Shown piece by piece: positions 25,026 to 62,464 of a stretch of 64,000 nt of DNA. Positions within the stretch are counted from its first letter, which is position 1; each line of letters begins with the position of its first letter. The position numbers and the translations under genes were made by a program. Source of the stretch: a phage. The notes beneath the pieces are model-generated. The model did no database searches and had not been told where the DNA came from. It saw only the letters and a list, made by a program, of their open reading frames with translations. The DNA lies in the sequence record PX246730.1; one strand, given 5' to 3'.

Positions 25026-25102
25026 CTCTGTTTAGCTCAGCTTGGTAGAGCGTTCCGTTTGGGGCGGTAAGGCCGGAGGTTCAAGTCCTCCAACAGAGAC
25101 CA
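25026..25102 (+). tRNA. tRNA-Pro(TGG)
   Basis: 7-bp acceptor CTCTGTT/AACAGAG, D-loop AGCTTGGTA, anticodon loop TTTGGGG, T-loop TTCAAGT, CCA encoded. Confidence 0.75.
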
Positions 25103-25109
25103 AATTAAT

Positions 25110-25187
25110 GTTCCAGTAGACAAAATGGTATAGTCACCACTCTTTCAAAGTGGATATTTGAGGGTTCAAATCCCTTCTGGAACGCCA
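25110..25187 (+). tRNA. tRNA-Glu(TTC)
   Basis: acceptor GTTCCAG/CTGGAAC, anticodon loop CTTTCAA, T-loop TTCAAAT, CCA encoded. Confidence 0.7.
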
Positions 25188-25192
25188 GTTTT

Positions 25193-25267
25193 GACAGAAG
25201 ACCAATTGCAGCAAACTTAATCTTATTCATCTGAAGGTAAATCGGACAAAGAAGAGATTTGGTCTGG
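25193..25267 (+). ncRNA. framed element a (ACAGAAGACC ... GGTCTGG closing stem)
   Basis: member of 4-copy family with covarying closing stem; function unknown. Confidence 0.3.
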
Positions 25268-25279
25268 TCATTAAGAATT

Positions 25280-25355
25280 GCGGGTATAGAGAAAGGGCGT
25301 CTCACATGTCTCATTAGCATGGTATCGGCAGGTTCGACTCCTGCACCCGCCTCCA
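25280..25355 (+). tRNA. tRNA-Met/Ile2(CAT)
   Basis: anticodon arm CATGT-CTCATTA-GCATG, T-loop TTCGACT; acceptor register ambiguous. Confidence 0.55.
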
Positions 25356-25360
25356 AATTT

Positions 25361-25436
25361 ACAGAAGACCGTTTACAGCAATACTTATTAAATTTTTAGC
25401 GGAAAAAATTGAAAGATACGGTCTGGTAATACTAAA
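25361..25436 (+). ncRNA. framed element b
   Basis: AGACCG/CGGTCT closing stem (compensatory change versus element a). Confidence 0.3.
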
Positions 25437-25439
25437 CAT

Positions 25440-25513
25440 GGTTAGGAAGCACATAAGGTATGTGCGGTCGCCTGTTAAGCGAATGGCACAGGGTTCGAAT
25501 CCCTGACTAACCG
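25440..25513 (+). tRNA. tRNA-Asn(GTT)
   Basis: D-stem GCAC/GTGC, anticodon loop CTGTTAA, T-arm CAGGG-TTCGAAT-CCCTG. Confidence 0.7.
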
Positions 25514-25525
25514 CAAAATTTAAAT

Positions 25526-25613
25526 GTGTCGTTATCCCGTAGATGGTAGCGGTGGGGACTGTAAATCCCTTGTCATTGAGACTCGGTAGGTTCGACTCCT
25601 ACACGGCACACCA
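25526..25613 (+). tRNA. tRNA-Tyr(GTA), long variable arm
   Basis: acceptor GTGTCGT/ACGGCAC, anticodon loop CTGTAAA, 15-nt variable arm, CCA encoded. Confidence 0.7.
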
Positions 25614-25674
25614 ATTTTGAGAGGGCTATTTAGCCCCTCCCTTAAAGAGTTCTTACGAGTATTCTTTAAAGGAG

Positions 25675-25748
25675 CAGAAGACCAAATACAGCAAGTTACT
25701 TAAAATTTCAAGCCAATTTAATTTTGAAAAATTTAAAACTTGGTCTGG
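25675..25748 (+). ncRNA. framed element c
   Basis: AGACCA/TGGTCT closing stem. Confidence 0.3.
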
Positions 25749-25760
25749 CTCAACAAATTT

Positions 25761-25893
25761 ACAGAAGACCGTTTACAGCAAAACTTAAACAATCTATTTC
25801 TCTGGTAAAGAAAAGGCGAAGGTTCGATTCCTTCACTCGGCAGATGTCGAGTTGGTGTAATGGTAGCACTTAAGATGATAAACAACGGTCTGG
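25761..25893 (+). ncRNA. framed element d enclosing permuted tRNA halves
   Basis: GACCGTT/AACGGTC closing stem surrounds 25797-25870. Confidence 0.35.
25797..25870 (+). tRNA. candidate circularly permuted tRNA-Thr(GGT): 3' half precedes 5' half
   Basis: 3' half = anticodon arm TTTCT-CTGGTAA-AGAAA + T-arm GAAGG-TTCGATT-CCTTC + ACTCGGC; 3 nt later 5' half GTCGAGT + D-arm GTGT-AATGGTA-GCAC; acceptor strands complementary at 7/7 with one GU. Confidence 0.4.
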
Positions 25894-25896
25894 TAA

Positions 25897-26036
25897 TTAT
25901 CTTTGTAGATAAGTTATTAAGCTTACCTGTGAGTATGCGACCACAAAGGGTGAAAGGGTAAATTCTAGATTTAAACCCAACAAGGCACATCGCTACAGAC
26001 CTTAAGCAAGTCTGGGTAGCTTATCTACAAAGATAA
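25897..26036 (+). ncRNA. ~140-nt element closed by 15-bp stem (TTATCTTTGTAGATAAG / CTTATCTACAAAGATAA)
   Basis: long-range perfect inverted repeat. Confidence 0.3.
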
Positions 26037-26042
26037 TTTAAT

Positions 26043-26118
26043 GGAAGTGTAGCAGAATGGTGATGCGGCAGACTTTTAATCTGACAGGCGATGGGTTCGA
26101 ATCCCTCCACTTCTACCA
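26043..26118 (+). tRNA. tRNA-Lys(TTT)
   Basis: acceptor GGAAGTG/CACTTCT, anticodon loop CTTTTAA, T-loop TTCGAAT, CCA encoded. Confidence 0.7.
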
Positions 26119-26122
26119 ATAT

Positions 26123-26199
26123 GGTTCAGTCGCAGATAAGGTAATGCAGGGGTCTCATAAGCCCTATGAATGTGGGTTCGATTCCCATCTGAACCTCCA
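26123..26199 (+). tRNA. tRNA-Met/Ile2(CAT)
   Basis: acceptor GGTTCAG/CTGAACC, anticodon loop CTCATAA, CCA encoded. Confidence 0.7.
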
Positions 26200-26201
26200 A
26201 T

Positions 26202-26277
26202 GCTGTGAAAGCACATATGGATGTGCATTCGGCTGATAACCGAAAGGAAGAAGGTTCGAATCCTTCTCACAGTACCA
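26202..26277 (+). tRNA. tRNA-Ile(GAT)
   Basis: D-stem GCAC/GTGC, anticodon arm TTCGG-CTGATAA-CCGAA, CCA encoded. Confidence 0.75.
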
Positions 26278-26290
26278 ATTTCAATAAAGT

Positions 26291-26319
26291 TGTTGACACT
26301 GAGATGTGACTACTTTATA
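26291..26319 (+). promoter_or_regulatory. strong sigma70-like promoter TTGACA-N17-TATAGT inside tRNA array
   Basis: read directly. Confidence 0.6.
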
Positions 26320-26526
26320 GTAACCTTAGTTTTCGTTGCGTAGCGTCTATTTTGCAAATTTAAAATAAATGCAAACGACAATGTTTTTCTGGCAGTAGCT
26401 TGATAGGCTAAACACCAGTGAGGTCTTCCAATCCCTCATCAAAGAATTTGGCGTACTAGCCCACGGTATGATTAATAAGGTGGGCATCTTTAAGGGCTTT
26501 CTAAGAGAGTCTTTAAAGATTAATTA

Positions 26527-26608
26527 CGGGGCGTATCTCATCTGTCTTCTAAACAGACGTTAACCGAGTAAGTGGAGTATGCGGGTTCGAGTCCTGCCGC
26601 CTCGACCA
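26527..26608 (+). tRNA. non-canonical tRNA-like element with Arg(TCT)-type anticodon hairpin and no recognisable D-arm
   Basis: acceptor CGGGGCG/CGCCTCG, hairpin TCTGT-CTTCTAA-ACAGA, 23-nt extra segment, T-arm GCGGG-TTCGAGT-CCTGC, CCA encoded. Confidence 0.4.
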
Positions 26609-26751
26609 ATTTAGTTAGCAGATTACTTAGACGACCTAAGCGGGTCTTCCTGTAGGGAGGTGGTCTGTATCTCATGTTTTCCAGAACATGTAAATAATCT
26701 GAGAAGGGGCTTTACAGTGTTGAGATAATACGGTAAGCTTCGAATTATAGT

Positions 26752-26834
26752 ATGGGACGATGTTAAGACTCTAAGGCATGAGCAACGGCTTCCAACACCG
26801 TTTCAAAGGGGTTCGACTCCTCCGTCCCATGCCA
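26752..26834 (+). tRNA. tRNA-Trp(CCA), atypical (extra nt between acceptor and D-arm)
   Basis: acceptor ATGGGAC/GTCCCAT exact, anticodon loop TTCCAAC, CCA encoded. Confidence 0.55.
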
Positions 26835-26847
26835 AAGTCTTATTAGG

Positions 26848-26935
26848 GGTAGGTAGCGGCTAATGGTAGCCAAACTGTCTTGAAAACAGTTGCCACTGTA
26901 GAGATACGGTGAGGGTTCGACTTCTTTACTTACCG
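26848..26935 (+). tRNA. tRNA-Ser(TGA), long variable arm
   Basis: anticodon arm ACTGT-CTTGAAA-ACAGT, 20-nt variable arm, T-loop TTCGACT. Confidence 0.7.
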
Positions 26936-27091
26936 CCTAATAAGATTTTAAAGCCAAGCTTCATTCGGATGTTGCTTTGGTATCCCTCGTGTTGTCGAAC
27001 ACACTAATAAAGCACCTAGTAGGTGTCACGGAGAAGAGATAATATCAAGCTCTCCAAAGGTTCTAGTCACCGGATTAAACAAGACTATGCA

Positions 27092-27112
27092 AAGACCTTT
27101 TTAGGTCTTTTT
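27092..27112 (+). terminator. hairpin AAGACC/GGTCTT plus T-tract inside tRNA array
   Basis: read directly. Confidence 0.45.
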
Positions 27113-27191
27113 AGAGGGCTTCTAAGGTTATTACAGCTTGTTGTGGAACCTTGTTGCTTAGGTTCTTAGAAGTTCTCTAAAAAGATTTAAT

Positions 27192-27269
27192 GGGAGATTG
27201 ACGGTAATTGGTAAACCTATCTCGCTTAGAACGAGATGTTTGAGGGTTCGAATCCCTTGTCTCCTACCA
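27192..27269 (+). tRNA. tRNA with anticodon TAG (Leu-type), short variable loop
   Basis: acceptor GGGAGAT/GTCTCCT (GU ends), anticodon arm TCTCG-CTTAGAA-CGAGA, CCA encoded. Confidence 0.6.
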
Positions 27270-27276
27270 AATTAAT

Positions 27277-27352
27277 GCAGGTGTAGCAAAATGGTTATGC
27301 GGCTGACTCTTAATCAGTAAGACGATGGGTTCAATTCCCTCCACCTGTACCA
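27277..27352 (+). tRNA. tRNA-Lys(CTT)
   Basis: acceptor GCAGGTG/CACCTGT, anticodon loop CTCTTAA, CCA encoded. Confidence 0.7.
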
Positions 27353-27358
27353 GATATT

Positions 27359-27434
27359 GGGGATGTAGTTTACATGGTTAAAACATAAGTTTTGCAAAAT
27401 TAAGTACAGGGTTCAATTCCCTGCTTCTCCACCA
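27359..27434 (+). tRNA. tRNA-Ala(TGC)
   Basis: D-stem GTTT/AAAC, anticodon loop TTTGCAA, T-arm CAGGG-TTCAATT-CCCTG, CCA encoded. Confidence 0.65.
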
Positions 27435-27440
27435 ATTAGT

Positions 27441-27515
27441 GCATCCATAGTTTAAACGGGAAAATTACAGTCTTCCAAACTGAGGTTGAGGGTTCGATTC
27501 CCTCTGGATGCTCCA
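27441..27515 (+). tRNA. tRNA-Gly(TCC)
   Basis: acceptor GCATCCA/TGGATGC exact, anticodon loop CTTCCAA, CCA encoded. Confidence 0.7.
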
Positions 27516-27521
27516 AATAAT

Positions 27522-27598
27522 GCTGCTTTCGTATAATTGGCTATTACACATCCCTTGTAAGGATGGAAATGCAGGTTCGAGTCCTGTGAGCAGCACCA
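27522..27598 (+). tRNA. tRNA-Thr(TGT)
   Basis: anticodon arm CATCC-CTTGTAA-GGATG perfect, T-loop TTCGAGT, CCA encoded. Confidence 0.75.
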
Positions 27599-27602
27599 AT
27601 TC

Positions 27603-27688
27603 AGAGGTCAAGTGAAAGACCGCTGGTGTCAACTGAAGACCGTAACAAATTCCACGGAGTTGAGTTAGCGGCACAACTTCAGACCTCT
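27603..27688 (+). ncRNA. framed element f (AGAGGTC ... GACCTCT) containing GAAGACCG motif
   Basis: long-range 7-bp inverted repeat between tRNAs. Confidence 0.3.
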
Positions 27689-27693
27689 TTCAC

Positions 27694-27768
27694 ACTCGCT
27701 TAGTTTATATGGTAAAACACCACCCTTACAAGATGAAGAAAAAGGTTCAAGTCCTTTAGTGAGTACCA
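27694..27768 (+). tRNA. tRNA-Val(TAC)
   Basis: acceptor ACTCGCT/AGTGAGT, D-stem GTTT/AAAC, anticodon loop CTTACAA, CCA encoded. Confidence 0.6.
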
Positions 27769-27769
27769 T

Positions 27770-27847
27770 GTTCCAGTATCCCAATTGGCAGAGGATGCAA
27801 GCTCAAACCTTGTACTAGTGACGGTTCGAATCCGTCTTGGAACACCA
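27770..27847 (+). tRNA. tRNA with anticodon CAA (Leu-type), short variable loop
   Basis: acceptor GTTCCAG/TTGGAAC, anticodon arm GCAAG-CTCAAAC-CTTGT, CCA encoded. Confidence 0.6.
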
Positions 27848-27852
27848 ATTTT

Positions 27853-27928
27853 GCAGGATTAGTTCAAATGGATAGAGCAACAGTCTACGAAGCTGTTAAT
27901 AGGGGTTCGAATCCCTTATCCTGCGCCA
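27853..27928 (+). tRNA. tRNA-Arg(ACG)
   Basis: acceptor GCAGGAT/ATCCTGC exact, anticodon loop CTACGAA, CCA encoded. Confidence 0.7.
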
Positions 27929-27947
27929 ATTTAAAGAGGCTATTTAG

Positions 27948-28505
27948 ATGAGATATTTGAAGTATGCTTCATGGATTTTCTTAGCTTTGTTAGAGCCATT
28001 TGCAGCAATCTTAGCAGTAATTTTAGCACCCTTTGTGGTTCCATTCTACAGTGAAAAGAAAGGACACTTACCTTTTGGATTCAGATGGATGGAGACTTAT
28101 GATAACCCAATTGATGGTGACAAAGGCCACGTTGAGAGATGGGCTAAGATTAGAAAGATTGGTAAGCTCGGTGTTTATATGCAGAGAGTTGGATGGCTCT
28201 GGAGAAACAAAGCTTATAACTTCTCTTACCATGTGCTAGGAAGAGATGTAAAAGATGTTACTAAGTGGAAAGGTAATATCAACGTAAGTTCTAACCCTGA
28301 AGATAATCAGACAGGTTATCTCCTAATGTGGAACAGTAATGCTTGGGGATTATTCGCTTTTACCCCATCAATTAAAATCTTTGGTAAACAATTCTACTGG
28401 AGAATTTATGTTGGATGGAAACTTAAAAGTGTTGTCCCAGAAGAAAGAGCATTCTCAAGGGAAAGAGTTATGTTGGCATTCTTTATTCATCCACTAAGAA
28501 AGTAA
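27948..28505 (+). CDS. membrane protein encoded inside tRNA array
   Basis: 185 aa; N-terminal TM IFLALLEPFAAILAVILAPFVVPF; ATG verified. Confidence 0.45.
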   Translation: MRYLKYASWIFLALLEPFAAILAVILAPFVVPFYSEKKGHLPFGFRWMETYDNPIDGDKGHVERWAKIRKIGKLGVYMQRVGWLWRNKAYNFSYHVLGRDVKDVTKWKGNINVSSNPEDNQTGYLLMWNSNAWGLFAFTPSIKIFGKQFYWRIYVGWKLKSVVPEERAFSRERVMLAFFIHPLRK

Positions 28506-28513
28506 AGATTTAA

Positions 28514-28589
28514 AGGGGATTAGTTTACAAGGTTAAAACCTCGGTCTTTGAAATCGAAGAAGTTGGTTCAATTCCAACATCCCCCACCA
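28514..28589 (+). tRNA. tRNA-Gln(TTG)
   Basis: D-stem GTTT/AAAC, anticodon arm TCGGT-CTTTGAA-ATCGA, T-arm GTTGG-TTCAATT-CCAAC, CCA encoded. Confidence 0.7.
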
Positions 28590-28591
28590 AT

Positions 28592-28670
28592 GCTCCATTA
28601 CTCCAATTGGCAGAGAGGCCAGACTTAAAATCTGTGTTATGTATCGGTTCGAATCCGATATGGAGTACCA
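28592..28670 (+). tRNA. tRNA with anticodon TAA (Leu-type), 7-nt variable loop
   Basis: acceptor GCTCCAT/ATGGAGT, anticodon loop CTTAAAA, T-arm ATCGG-TTCGAAT-CCGAT, CCA encoded. Confidence 0.55.
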
Positions 28671-28675
28671 AATTT

Positions 28676-28751
28676 AGCGGTATAGCATAACTGGCAATGC
28701 AGCAGTCTCTGAAGCTGTCCTATTAAGGTTCAAATCCTTATGCCGCTGCCA
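28676..28751 (+). tRNA. tRNA-Gln(CTG)
   Basis: D-stem GCAT/ATGC, anticodon loop CTCTGAA, T-arm TAAGG-TTCAAAT-CCTTA, CCA encoded. Confidence 0.7.
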
Positions 28752-28782
28752 CTTCTAAGGGTTCTTACGAGAGTCCTTAAAT

Positions 28783-28858
28783 GTGGCCTTATCATAAAAG
28801 GTAATGACCCATGCTGTGAACATGGTCTATACGGGTTCAAATCCCGTAGGTCACCCCA
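28783..28858 (+). tRNA. tRNA-His(GTG)
   Basis: anticodon arm CCATG-CTGTGAA-CATGG perfect, T-arm ACGGG-TTCAAAT-CCCGT, CCA encoded. Confidence 0.75.
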
Positions 28859-28863
28859 ATTTA

Positions 28864-28937
28864 TAGTCCAAGTAGCTTATATGGTAAAGCGCGTGTCTGA
28901 AAAACATGAGAAGAGGGTTCAAATCCCACTGGACTAC
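28864..28937 (+). tRNA. tRNA-Phe(GAA)
   Basis: acceptor TAGTCCA/TGGACTA exact, anticodon loop CTGAAAA; 2 extra nt before D-stem. Confidence 0.6.
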
Positions 28938-28955
28938 CAATTTCAAAGGTGCTTA

Positions 28956-29690
28956 ATGAAAGAGATGACAGAACAAGGTAAGGAGATTTTTAATCTCTTA
29001 AAAACCGGTAGAGGGTTTTCTAATCCCCTTATTACTGGTGCAGCAGTTCTCGGTGGAACCGTAGCTGCCTCTACATCACTTGTAAGCTCTATTAGCTCTG
29101 TAACAGACCCTACAATAAAAGATAAGCTTGTTGCTGCTGGGCTTACAACAGTCCTCCTAAACAGCTTTACAACAAGCCTGACAAGCACTACAGCAACTAC
29201 TAAGACCCTGACAGACTACGGTCAAAAGTCTATTGATGAGTTTTCATCACGTATGCAGGTAGCAAAGGGATACTCCAATGTTATGGGTGCAGCAGGAGAA
29301 CAAGTTGGTTGTACACCATTCAGTGGTATTATGGGTGTTGCTACAGAGTATGGTCAAAAAGCTATTGACATGATGAACAGTACACTAGATAGTGTTAATG
29401 GTGTGTTAAGTGACTTACAAGATGCTATTGATAAGGGTCTTGATACTGTTTCTGATTTAGCTAACCAAGCTGTTAGTAAGATTAATGAAGGTATCTCGAA
29501 GATTACAGCTTATGCAGATGAAGTTGTGCAGATGATTGAAGAAGAAGCTGCCCTTATTGCAGAGTACCTTAAAACGAATATCAATGGGTTCTTAGCAGGT
29601 ATCTTACCAGACTGGTTTGATGATGCCTGTAAAACTGGTGTAATTGACACTATTGCAACACCAGAAATGAAGAGCGCATTACAGAAATAA
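28956..29690 (+). CDS. hypothetical protein (Ser/Thr-rich N-region)
   Basis: track ORF 28740 reads through three tRNAs; start moved to first ATG downstream of tRNA-Phe. Confidence 0.4.
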   Translation: MKEMTEQGKEIFNLLKTGRGFSNPLITGAAVLGGTVAASTSLVSSISSVTDPTIKDKLVAAGLTTVLLNSFTTSLTSTTATTKTLTDYGQKSIDEFSSRMQVAKGYSNVMGAAGEQVGCTPFSGIMGVATEYGQKAIDMMNSTLDSVNGVLSDLQDAIDKGLDTVSDLANQAVSKINEGISKITAYADEVVQMIEEEAALIAEYLKTNINGFLAGILPDWFDDACKTGVIDTIATPEMKSALQK

Positions 29691-29691
29691 T

Positions 29692-29784
29692 GGAAGATTA
29701 ACCCTAAAAGGTAAGGGAGCAGTTTGCTAAACTGCCAGTAGCTGAGAAATCGGTGTACCAGTTCAAGTCTGGTATCTTCCTCCA
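29692..29784 (+). tRNA. tRNA-Ser(GCT), long variable arm
   Basis: acceptor GGAAGAT/ATCTTCC exact, D-arm CCC..GGG, anticodon arm GCAGT-TTGCTAA-ACTGC, 21-nt variable arm, CCA encoded. Confidence 0.75.
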
Positions 29785-29788
29785 ATTT

Positions 29789-29864
29789 GAATCCGTGACA
29801 GAAATGGATATGTGCCTGTCTGCAAAACAGGTTTATAAGGGTTCGAGTCCCTTCGGATTCTCCA
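29789..29864 (+). tRNA. tRNA-Cys(GCA)
   Basis: acceptor GAATCCG/CGGATTC exact, anticodon arm CCTGT-CTGCAAA-ACAGG, CCA encoded. Confidence 0.75.
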
Positions 29865-59329: not shown

Positions 59330-60433
59330 TTATTCGTAGTCTCGAATAACTAACCCAACAGGGAACTGTAAAGAACCTTTACGAGTCATCTTCTGGAACT
59401 GAACCGTTAAAGGCTTCCCGATAAACTCTTCAGGATGTTCAGCAAGATACTGTTTCTTCTCATGAGTAGTCTTCCATGAGACATCTACAAAGACGTTAGG
59501 AAGAGTCTCTACAACAAACTTGCCATGACCACGCTTATCAGTCTTTACACCAGTCACTTTAAACTCTTCAGTGTGCATCTTCTTGTGCTTAATCAAGAAG
59601 TATGAACGGTGACAACACTCATAGAAGGAGTCTTCAGAGATTGAACGGTACATTGCACCTTCAAACTTAGCTTCAACCCACTTATCATGAGCTTCATCGA
59701 ACTCTTCCCAAGAATTTACACGACGAGACTTAACAGGGACAACTTTACAACCATCTCTCAAATCATTCAATGGTGAAGTCTCAATAATATCTCTACGCTC
59801 AGGCCACGTTTTAGTACTGTCACAGATATCATACCAGTAGAACTTAAGTAAGTGTCTGTCAGGATTGTCTTCATTTTTAATCATGGAGACAATATCTTCT
59901 AAGTCCCAACCATGAGCATAAATCTCTCCATCAAATTCATCAACATCTTTGTGGAGCCTTAACATTGCCATAATGTCGGGTATTAGTTCAGTAGGGATTT
60001 TATAAACAGTATTTTCACGAGAGTATGCTGTGAATACACTACCAATGCTTAAGTGTCTTGAAATTCTACAACGGACACCATCAAGTTTTGGTTGAGCATC
60101 AGCAGGGAACTTCAGATACTTTGCATGACTAACCTTTGCAGCATCATGAGCAAGCTGTACACCTACCTTCTCAGTATTCTGTGCAGACTCTTTTGTGTAA
60201 GCGTAACCTTTGCGGTCAACTTGCTTTTTATACTTAGCAGCAACTTCAAAGAGAGCTTGCTGTTCAGCGTTACGCTCATTCTTTTTACCGATGTTTTTAG
60301 GTTCTGCTGTATACTCTTCAAACATCATCTTGCCATTTTCTTTACCATAGGTTGTAATAACTTTGTCACCTACAGCAACACACGACCAGACGTTGAAGGA
60401 ACCATCTTTATTTTGTTTGTACAGAATTGTCAT
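59330..60433 (-). CDS. ATP-dependent DNA ligase
   Basis: adenylation motif KLDGVRC (KxDGxR); 367 aa; ATG verified. Confidence 0.8.
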   Translation of the reverse strand: MTILYKQNKDGSFNVWSCVAVGDKVITTYGKENGKMMFEEYTAEPKNIGKKNERNAEQQALFEVAAKYKKQVDRKGYAYTKESAQNTEKVGVQLAHDAAKVSHAKYLKFPADAQPKLDGVRCRISRHLSIGSVFTAYSRENTVYKIPTELIPDIMAMLRLHKDVDEFDGEIYAHGWDLEDIVSMIKNEDNPDRHLLKFYWYDICDSTKTWPERRDIIETSPLNDLRDGCKVVPVKSRRVNSWEEFDEAHDKWVEAKFEGAMYRSISEDSFYECCHRSYFLIKHKKMHTEEFKVTGVKTDKRGHGKFVVETLPNVFVDVSWKTTHEKKQYLAEHPEEFIGKPLTVQFQKMTRKGSLQFPVGLVIRDYE

Positions 60434-61121: not shown

Positions 61122-61634
61122 TCAACTTAGTTTTGCAAACTCTCCGTGAAGTTTAATAGCAGCTTCACAGTAAGCTTTATGGGCTTCTTCTTCTGTTGTG
61201 TATGTCCCTATATGTATAGTCTTGCCATTATGGTTAATCTGGGCTTTCCACTTACCAGACTTACTTCTACTTGTACCTTTTAAGTTTTTTGATGTTCTAG
61301 GTTGTCTCCTATTAGACATATTCTGTTCTTTTGTGGCCTCTCTTAGATTGTCCCAAGCGTTATTCAAACCATCTCCATCTTTGTGGTCAATTTGCTTATC
61401 AGGCCACTTGCCTGTCATCCAGAACCAAGCAATTCGGTGATTGCCTGTCCTGTATCCTAAAATCTGTGTGTGCATATACACACCAGACCTTGTGCGCTTA
61501 ATTGCTCCGGCTTGGCTTCCAATAACCACCCTACTACTGTGTGGAGGTCTGCCAATCCATGTTAAGACCCCTGTTTCGGGGTCATAATCTAACCAAGATT
61601 TTAACTGTTCATGTGTGAATCCACAATCTCTCAT
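61122..61634 (-). CDS. HNH endonuclease with AP2-like DNA-binding domain
   Basis: HNH motif IDHKDGDGLNNAWDNLREATKEQN; AP2-like GKWKAQINHNGKTIHIGTYTTEEEAHKAY; ATG overlaps polymerase stop. Confidence 0.7.
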   Translation of the reverse strand: MRDCGFTHEQLKSWLDYDPETGVLTWIGRPPHSSRVVIGSQAGAIKRTRSGVYMHTQILGYRTGNHRIAWFWMTGKWPDKQIDHKDGDGLNNAWDNLREATKEQNMSNRRQPRTSKNLKGTSRSKSGKWKAQINHNGKTIHIGTYTTEEEAHKAYCEAAIKLHGEFAKLS

Positions 61635-62193
61635 CAATGTACCTCATACCACGATTTACCAACCTTTGCTGTACCAGTTACAAGTGTTTCTTTCCTCAAA
61701 CCTAAGTTTTTTGAAGCTTGTCCATACATCCAGTCAGCAATTGCTTTCATATCCTGTGTCATACCCTCTGGACATTCCCAACTATTTTCATCGTGATATG
61801 CCAGAAGTAACCTTGCTCCGATAGCTGGTTTTCGAGCATTCAGTTTTGTCAGGCCATCTTCACAGGCTTTTCTTGCTGCTAGGTTGATGGCCTCATTCTG
61901 AATCTGGGCTTCCGAACTCATCAAGAGGTAGTTCAGTAGTTTATGTGGAGATTTGCACCATATCCATGCTCCAGCGACCCTGATATAACCACCTTTAGCA
62001 ATTGAAGAATTCTTCCCAAAAACCTCTTCCAGAGCCTTTTTAGACGCCTTAAAATCGGCTTCTAAGCTATCAAGTAACTTCTTAATCTTTGGCAGACGCA
62101 TATAGTAAGTTTGTTTAGTCAATGCACCTTCTTCCGTAGATGATGCTTTGATAGTTTTTGCAAACTTCTCATCACCTGCACCAAACAATACAT
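61634..62193 (-). CDS. DNA polymerase (family A, T7-type), exon 2 (C-terminal palm)
   Basis: LFGAGDEK, SPHKLLNYLL, AYHDE (motif C), KVGKSWYEVH align with T7 gp5 C-terminus. Confidence 0.8.
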
Positions 62194-62464
62194 CTGGTCA
62201 ATACACTCGCAAGGTGTACCAGTTCTCTTATGAACTTCTCCGCATTTCTACGGAGTGTCGGACTATATCACGTAGTAGTAATACTACCGTTGCACTTGGG
62301 AATGGTCATTAGCTTACCACCCTACTCTACTCAGTTCATACATTAAGTATGCTTTTCGATAGTCTCTGAACGTTCCTCTTAAGAGGCTTCGCTGCTGATT
62401 ACCATATCTTTACAGACTTAGGCTTCCAGCAATTCACAACGTTTTACATGCGCCACTGACGCAT
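62194..62464 (-). mobile_element. group I intron (ORF-less) in DNA polymerase gene
   Basis: on the RNA strand, in order: P AAUUGCUGGAAGCC, Q AAUCAGCAGC, R GUUCAGAGACUAUCG, S GAUAUAGUCCGACA; interrupts reading frame within motif B; splice sites approximate. Confidence 0.8.

Follow-up and report, generated by a model that had tools for sequence, protein, structure and literature searches.

The DNA polymerase gene in phage record PX246730.1 is almost certainly interrupted by a group I intron of 268 nt, which contains no open reading frame, splits a Felixounavirus family-A polymerase on the minus strand and would splice in the standard way. The window, i.e. the whole stretch of 64,000 nt that was analysed, matches the Rfam group I intron model RF00028 on the minus strand at 62238-62521, over the full model (1-253), with 64.2 bits and an E-value of 5.7e-14. 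The gathering score, i.e. the curated threshold, of this model is 50 bits. An earlier note on this DNA, written by a model that had only the letters and a list of ORFs, had claimed a group I intron here and named the Rfam covariance model as a check; the match passes the curated threshold, and the claim is further borne out by helices that can be drawn and that covary, and by a polymerase that is colinear after removal of the insert. A near-identical copy of the intron in another genome (locus L003) scores 64.8 bits with the same model. The RF00028 search of the 64-kb window found no second group I intron, even at E <= 0.05.

The note had also described the intron as free of internal ORFs, and this holds: on the gene strand, the ORF list contains nothing coding within the 268 nt. 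All that the list shows in the insert is a pair of antisense ORFs (54 and 62 aa), both without support.

The 2.9 kb around the intron are 97% identical to Felixounavirus genomes, e.g. phiWec172 and vB_Si_35FD. Matches to this neighbourhood are found in 254 phage records. The source phage can be assigned to Felixounavirus, i.e. to the Felix O1-like myoviruses of the Ounavirinae. The 22 tRNA genes found above the Rfam threshold on the plus strand of the window (25026-29861) fit this identification, and 22 tRNAs are also reported in the genome paper of Felix O1, which states that there are no introns in that phage (PMC3185647). A weak tRNA-Sec-like match is seen at 26848-26934 of the window.

Against solved family-A polymerases, the product of the interrupted gene matches chains of the T7 DNA polymerase with an E-value of 1.9e-9 and Taq polymerase with about 1e-5. 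Motif B, the O-helix with the pattern R..AK...Y...YG, is present and aligns across the splice junction. From these matches, the gene can be classified as a family A (T7-type) DNA polymerase. The split inside motif B had been recognised earlier from the two frames ...RKKAKNGIY and (V)LFGAGDEK, and both are indeed found on the minus strand. The first frame reads ...TKGRKKAKNGIY and continues for 13 codons into the insert before it meets a TAA at 62418-62420, and the second, (V)LFGAGDEKFAK..., ends at the stop at 61634. The 3' end of exon 1 is ...AAA AAT GGC ATT TAT GCG T, and the exon is colinear with the uninterrupted polymerase of the intronless phage SP116. The frame of exon 2 stays open across intron-bearing phages that are 22% diverged in bases. 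Third codon positions account for 63% of the changes, and the frame can be regarded as constrained among these phages.

The splice sites are given by the pairing of the intron with its exons and by the alleles that lack it. The RF00028 alignment puts P1/P2 at 62465-62521. This placement was ruled out, as the stretch is coding exon that is conserved in intronless phages, and because the Rfam placement falls in the exon, the 5' end was instead set by hand from P1 and the intronless alleles. P1 consists of 6 bp, with a CAGUG loop and a final U.G pair at the 5' splice site (U 62459), see Table 1. P10 has five pairs, two of which are G.U. At the 3' end, the intron closes with ...AUG and its final base is the G at 62191. 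The predicted junction reads ...ATT TAT GCG T/TA TTG TTT GGT... (the slash marks the splice point), i.e. ...RKKAKNGIYA-LLFGAGDEK... in the protein, with a Leu codon that is split T/TA.

The homologues agree with this junction. SP116 encodes a continuous polymerase of 910 aa, ...RKKSKNGIYALLFGAGDEK..., and ...NGIYALLFGAG... is uninterrupted both in SP116 and in ten more intronless phages, including ph2-2, HY02, wV8 and Moogle. An alignment of the spliced protein with T7 DNA polymerase needs no gap at the junction (GRKKAKNGIYALLFGAGDEKFAK versus TRDNAKTFIYGFLYGAGDEKIGQ), and the counterpart of the split codon, within the O-helix, is F528 in T7 and L764 (about 763/764) in E. coli Pol I.

The earlier note had placed the intron at 62194-62464 and had predicted the junction as NGIY-VLFGAG or NGIYDVLFGAG. 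The ends must be corrected to 62191..62458, i.e. they were off by 3 and 6 nt, and both junctions are wrong, since the intronless homologues and the T7 alignment give NGIYA/LLFGAG. Either of the two junctions would require a 5' site after a base other than U or a 3' site that does not follow a G, and the resulting proteins are one residue shorter or longer than the intronless homologues or differ from them. A 3' splice site after ...CCAG was also rejected; it yields IYAYVLFGAG, which is one residue too long, and it makes P10 impossible. The sequence UAUUG is found a second time at 62199-62203 on the minus strand, 8 nt upstream of the 3' splice site, in the 3' strand of P9.2, and this internal copy might compete for the P10 partner.

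Table 1. Features of the interrupted polymerase gene and its intron. Positions are those of the window.
Feature	Position	Strand	Basis or remark
Group I intron, 268 nt, ORF-less, IA2-like	62191..62458	-	RF00028; intronless alleles missing exactly 268 nt
DNA polymerase exon 1	62459..64000	-	open frame; partial, gene 5' end beyond window
DNA polymerase exon 2	61634..62190	-	starts TA TTG TTT GGT GCA GGT; TGA stop 61634-61636
P1	62448..62464	-	exon AUGCGU (62464-62459) with guide GCGCAU (62453-62448)
P10, 3'-exon strand UAUUG	62186..62190	-	partner is the first five intron bases CAGUG (62458-62454)
P3 5' strand, J3/4 AAU, P4-P5-P5a-P6-P6a domain	62371..62441	-	includes P and Q elements
P3	62437-62441 with 62288-62292	-	standard pairs
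P4	62426-62431 with 62393-62398	-	standard pairs
P7	62360-62364 (GACUA, inside R element) with 62261-62265 (S element)	-	
P7.1 (CAUAC/GUAUG) and P7.2 (GGG.GGU/ACC...CCC)	62298..62351	-	between P7 and P3 3' strand
P3 3' strand, P8 hairpin (62272-62287), J8/7 GUGAUA, P7 3' strand	62261..62292	-	
P9, P9.1, P9.2, terminal AUG	62191..62255	-	P9 has 7 bp and a GAAA loop
Free-standing HNH + AP2 endonuclease gene	61122..61637	-	Pfam HNH_3 7.7e-15, AP2 3.8e-9

Structurally, the helices P1, P3 to P9.2 and P10 are formed by standard pairs throughout, and the 268-nt fold contains no P2. The conserved elements P, Q, R and S (UUGCUGGAA, AAUCAGCAGC, GUUCAGAGACUA and GAUAUAGUCC) occur in the order that had been read from the letters, and they build P4 and P7. 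A GUAA loop closes P5/P5a, and P6a is in this form a 4-bp hairpin with a UUAA loop. The P7.1 and P7.2 hairpins, additional elements that characterise subgroup IA, lie at 62337-62351 and 62298-62322. When the sequence is folded without constraints, P3, P4, P5, P7.1, P7.2, P8, P9 and P9.1 are found, and the centroid structure adds P6a. The P3/P7 pseudoknot is absent from this unconstrained fold, as expected, and the z-score of the fold is modest (-2.0), as expected for a pseudoknotted ribozyme.

With P7.1 and P7.2 present and P2 missing, the intron resembles subgroup IA2, an assignment that is made from the architecture and not from a subgroup-specific model. One criterion quoted for IA2 introns is a G-U-A linker that joins P7.1 and P7.2 (PMC3428280). 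Here, the linker is AACUGAGUAGAGUA, which contains GUA twice, yet is longer than the bare GUA.

The fold can also be compared with those of related introns. The closest ribozyme found outside the genus is an intron in the Gamaleyavirus vB_EcoP-ZQ2 (MW630115, hereafter ZQ2), and in IMG/VR a search pattern anchored on P4 and P7 finds 120 related stretches, of which 94 are distinct. The MAFFT alignment of these distant IMG/VR relatives is unreliable from P7.1 to the 3' strand of P3, and for this reason an alignment-free test of P3 and a helix-by-helix comparison with the ZQ2 intron were used. In the nine core helices, 14 out of 41 pairs have changed on both sides between ZQ2 and the window and none is broken; the compensatory changes include pairs in P3, P5, P5a and P6. 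For P3, an exact complement of the 5-nt strand is located between the two P7 strands in 84 of the 94 distinct IMG/VR introns, compared with 10.8 on average and at most 20 in permuted controls, and 41 different P3 words are represented among these related introns. Covariation is also seen within the genus: a U-A pair in P8 is replaced by C-G in REP6, and a pair in P6 is C-G in the 268-nt form versus U-A in two longer forms (805 and 311 nt) of the intron.

Approximately 294 phage records contain the polymerase site and approximately 127 of them carry the intron at an identity of at least 80%. The site exists in four states, i.e. empty or with an intron of 268, 805 or 311 nt. It is empty in SP116, ph2-2, HY02, nataliec, wV8, Moogle, SeKF_63, LF82P5, LF82P9, ASO1B and Henu11. 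The 268-nt form is found in the window of PX246730.1 as well as in 35FD, REP6 and REP12. In the 805-nt form, which is present in at least 26 records, a long P6a stem surrounds an ORF of 161 aa (Pfam Endonuclease_7, 6e-20); the ORF sits in the P6a loop and encodes an Endo VII-type (DHHRN) homing endonuclease. The 311-nt form (Shigella phage Tf, GEC_vB_BS and NJ12) has kept the long P6a stem and lost the ORF. A single genus thus provides a natural series of the homing cycle: the empty site, the endonuclease-bearing intron, the endonuclease-deleted intron and the minimal intron.

The 805-nt sibling is inserted in the identical gene at the identical point, shares the exon bases of P1 and P10, and has a ribozyme that is 97-99% identical outside P6. 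It differs from the intron in the window by the 537 nt of P6a stem and ORF that the latter lacks, and by the pair beneath P6a, which is C-G in the window and U-A in the sibling. The endonuclease-bearing sibling is already noticed in print: JH2, EC6 and FSL SP-010 all match the intron of the window, and their endonucleases are listed as 'intron-encoded' in a 2018 paper on the DHHRN (Endo VII-motif) family (PMC6083498). For the ORF-less form, we found no description in the literature besides a passing remark on 'two introns' in phage SPJ41 (PMC9951933). None of the Felixounavirus records that were inspected has an intron feature; the polymerase appears there as two genes, called 'DNA polymerase' or 'hypothetical'. 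The intron is also found, 100% identical, in MG065664.1 and MG065668.1 ('Campylobacter phage A132/A126'), where the flanks are 95% identical and typical of Felixounavirus. For these two records, the host label looks doubtful, or they are mixed assemblies.

The exon bases next to the insertion point differ between the alleles. At position -1, all six intron-bearing alleles inspected have U and all eleven intronless alleles have C, and the exon strand of P1 is kept in the former (6/6) and altered in the latter (11/11). Intron-bearing alleles read ...TATGCGT/TATTGTT..., and the intronless ones have a Leu codon C/TG or C/TA, not T/TA. The pattern at the -1 base matches the requirements of P1 and P10.

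A wider region of the flanks (window 62170-62482) was compared with SP116, ph2-2, HY02 and nataliec (L001, L128, L129 and L130). Over about 125 nt on either side, the first three hardly differ from the window except for 13-14 mostly synonymous changes, which are clustered at -23..+20; nataliec has part of this patch. The wV8-type intronless alleles are without the part of the patch that lies in exon 2, and in REP6 (L133), which carries the intron, the patch codons exist in a third version. The patch looks like the product of gene conversion around the site, which would be consistent with past homing or with intron loss, or the changes may be a recoding by which the site evades a homing endonuclease.

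The 268-nt form is one state of the homing cycle in the genus. Because it has no endonuclease gene, it is unable to drive its own spread, and any spread most likely depends on the endonuclease of the sibling in mixed infections or on ordinary recombination. It could also be an immobile relic, i.e. an intron that is inherited vertically, is moved by general recombination only and is heading for loss. We consider this a possible but somewhat doubtful explanation. It agrees with the missing ORF, with the 311-nt form, which testifies to at least one deletion of the endonuclease gene, and with an identity of 97-100% between introns from different hosts and continents. However, in near-identical genomes the presence or absence of the intron differs along with the flanking patch at -23..+20, as in a conversion tract, the boundaries of the patch vary between phages, e.g. 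between REP6 and nataliec, and endonuclease-bearing siblings circulate in the same hosts. The relic explanation touches only the mobility of the element, not its identity.

It can be speculated that there is an arms race at the site, on the level of the DNA: the recoded sites would evade the Endo VII-type enzyme of the 805-nt form, and the ORF-less intron would persist as an immunity that destroys the target. We regard this scenario as rather unlikely; if it were true, all stages of the homing cycle would coexist in one well-studied and easily grown phage genus.

The gene that follows the polymerase encodes a free-standing HNH-AP2 endonuclease, and its ATG overlaps the stop codon of the polymerase (TGATG). 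Forty-four phage records contain the full-length gene, and in about 95 more the match is restricted to the final ~70 nt. This pattern suggests that the polymerase is followed by a slot in which HNH genes of different kinds are exchanged for one another. Collaborative homing, in which the HNH-AP2 enzyme would cut intronless polymerase sites and the intron would shield the genome that carries it, has precedents in F-CphI/psbA and T3 gene 5.3 (PMC6083498). The position of an HNH_3 + AP2 gene directly at the polymerase stop codon would fit such a partnership, and so would the ZQ2 intron, which, as the closest related one, contains an HNH-AP2 gene with the same domains. However, five added phages that have the same HNH-AP2 gene (SeKF_63, LF82P5, LF82P9, ASO1B and Henu11) all have an ordinary, uninterrupted and non-recoded site of the wV8 type, and in other intron-bearing phages the slot contains a different HNH gene. 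As all five added phages have a plain site and the content of the slot varies, the presence of the HNH-AP2 gene is no guide to whether the site is interrupted or altered, and we consider collaborative homing with this enzyme very improbable.

Whatever its mobility, the intron would act in the transcript in the following way. The RNA would fold into the group I core, i.e. P3-P8 with the P3/P7 pseudoknot, the P4-P6 domain, P7.1/P7.2 and P9-P9.2. The guide GCGCAU would pair with the exon end AUGCGU and place a U.G pair at the splice site, and a free guanosine would attack after the splice-site U. With P10 (CAGUG/UAUUG) and the terminal G, the 3' exon would be positioned next, and joining of the exons would give an mRNA that encodes ...RKKAKNGIYALLFGAGDEK.... 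A ribosome on the unspliced RNA would meet a stop after 13 codons of intron sequence, and the truncated polymerase would lack motif C completely and one half of motif B. Since the polymerase is essential, the intron occurs in many independently isolated lytic phages and exon 2 is kept as a constrained frame, we infer from the sequences that the RNA is spliced in infected cells by two guanosine-initiated transesterifications. That the polymerase is genuinely split, with two polypeptides that are made separately and assemble and with the intervening RNA retained, has a negligible probability: the GenBank records of relatives do list two separate 'DNA polymerase' CDS and the mechanical ORF list does assign a TTG start to exon 2, but this TTG simply encodes the second of the two Leu residues in ...ALLFGAG..., the break is in the middle of a codon and of the O-helix, the RNA between the frames is a complete group I ribozyme whose helices covary, and P1 and P10 pair exactly with the exon bases that distinguish intron-bearing from intronless alleles, which is inexplicable without splicing.

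The intron is a poorly annotated case of the familiar group I introns of phage polymerases. In a 2012 survey, such introns in phage family-A polymerases are located (in E. coli positions) at 674 in SPO1, SP82, Bastille and Pf-WMP3, at 676 in phiL7, and at 881 in phiI and W31 (PMC3428280). These introns share with the intron described here an IA2-type architecture with P7.1/P7.2, and Pf-WMP3 is also without P2; they likewise interrupt a region of the polymerase that is strongly conserved and important for function, and they carry homing endonuclease genes in P6a (PMC3428280). They differ in the insertion point, which here is in motif B at about 763/764 (T7 F528). Furthermore, the survey introns encode HNH endonucleases and have been demonstrated to splice, while the intron of the window is ORF-less and its splicing is deduced from sequence. 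The motif-B (O-helix) site is thereby added to the three polymerase sites (674, 676 and 881) of the 2012 survey.

A second intron in T7-type motif B is found in the DNA polymerase I of the Escherichia phage KarlSchell_Bas89, which is annotated as a joined CDS (RDNAKTFIYAFN...YGAGDAKLG). It has P4/P7 core sequence in common with the intron of the window and a near-identical P9.1. However, its insertion point appears to be 6 nt further downstream, behind base 1 of the T7 Y530 codon. It also contains an endonuclease ORF, and the phage is a member of another family.

The ZQ2 intron (L004 460-1625) scores 91.8 bits with RF00028 and is 72% identical to the intron of the window over 78% of the intron. 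The order of the helices, including P7.1/P7.2, is identical, and the hairpins are at equivalent places. It is set apart from the intron of the window by its location in a gene for an RNA polymerase, by a P2 and by an HNH-AP2 ORF that follows P9. This kinship suggests that the intron has moved between different genes of unrelated coliphages. In ZQ2, the RNA polymerase is annotated as two CDS and the intron is unannotated.

The introns of T4 in td, nrdB and nrdD (sunY) belong to subgroup IA2 and are self-splicing. The intron of the window falls in the same class of phage introns and, like them, resides in a gene of DNA metabolism, and relatives of T4 are known that have ORF-less or ORF-deleted versions of their introns. 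No similarity at the DNA level was detected between the intron of the window and the td, nrdB and nrdD introns, and the genes are different.

The main value of the finding is in annotation, considering the ~127 records with the intron and the split polymerase, without an intron feature, in the Felixounavirus records inspected. Joining the exons correctly gives the true sequence of the polymerase, and many of these phages have been proposed for therapy or biocontrol. The understanding of how group I introns work is unchanged.

Polymerase genes that are annotated in two parts are also found further away. In the crAss-like phage cr3_1 (NC_055874; L006 3064-4068), the DNA polymerase is given as two CDS around a GIY-YIG 'homing endonuclease' gene, and the stretch right after exon 1 has a P4-P6 core in common with the intron of the window; this insert is probably another unannotated group I intron. 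The DNA ligase is a different case. In the window, it is a single ORF of 367 aa (59330-60433, minus strand), and in the Salmonella phage GEC_vB_B1 (L002 5996-6438) it is annotated as two overlapping CDS, which is probably due to a frameshift or a sequencing error rather than to an intron.
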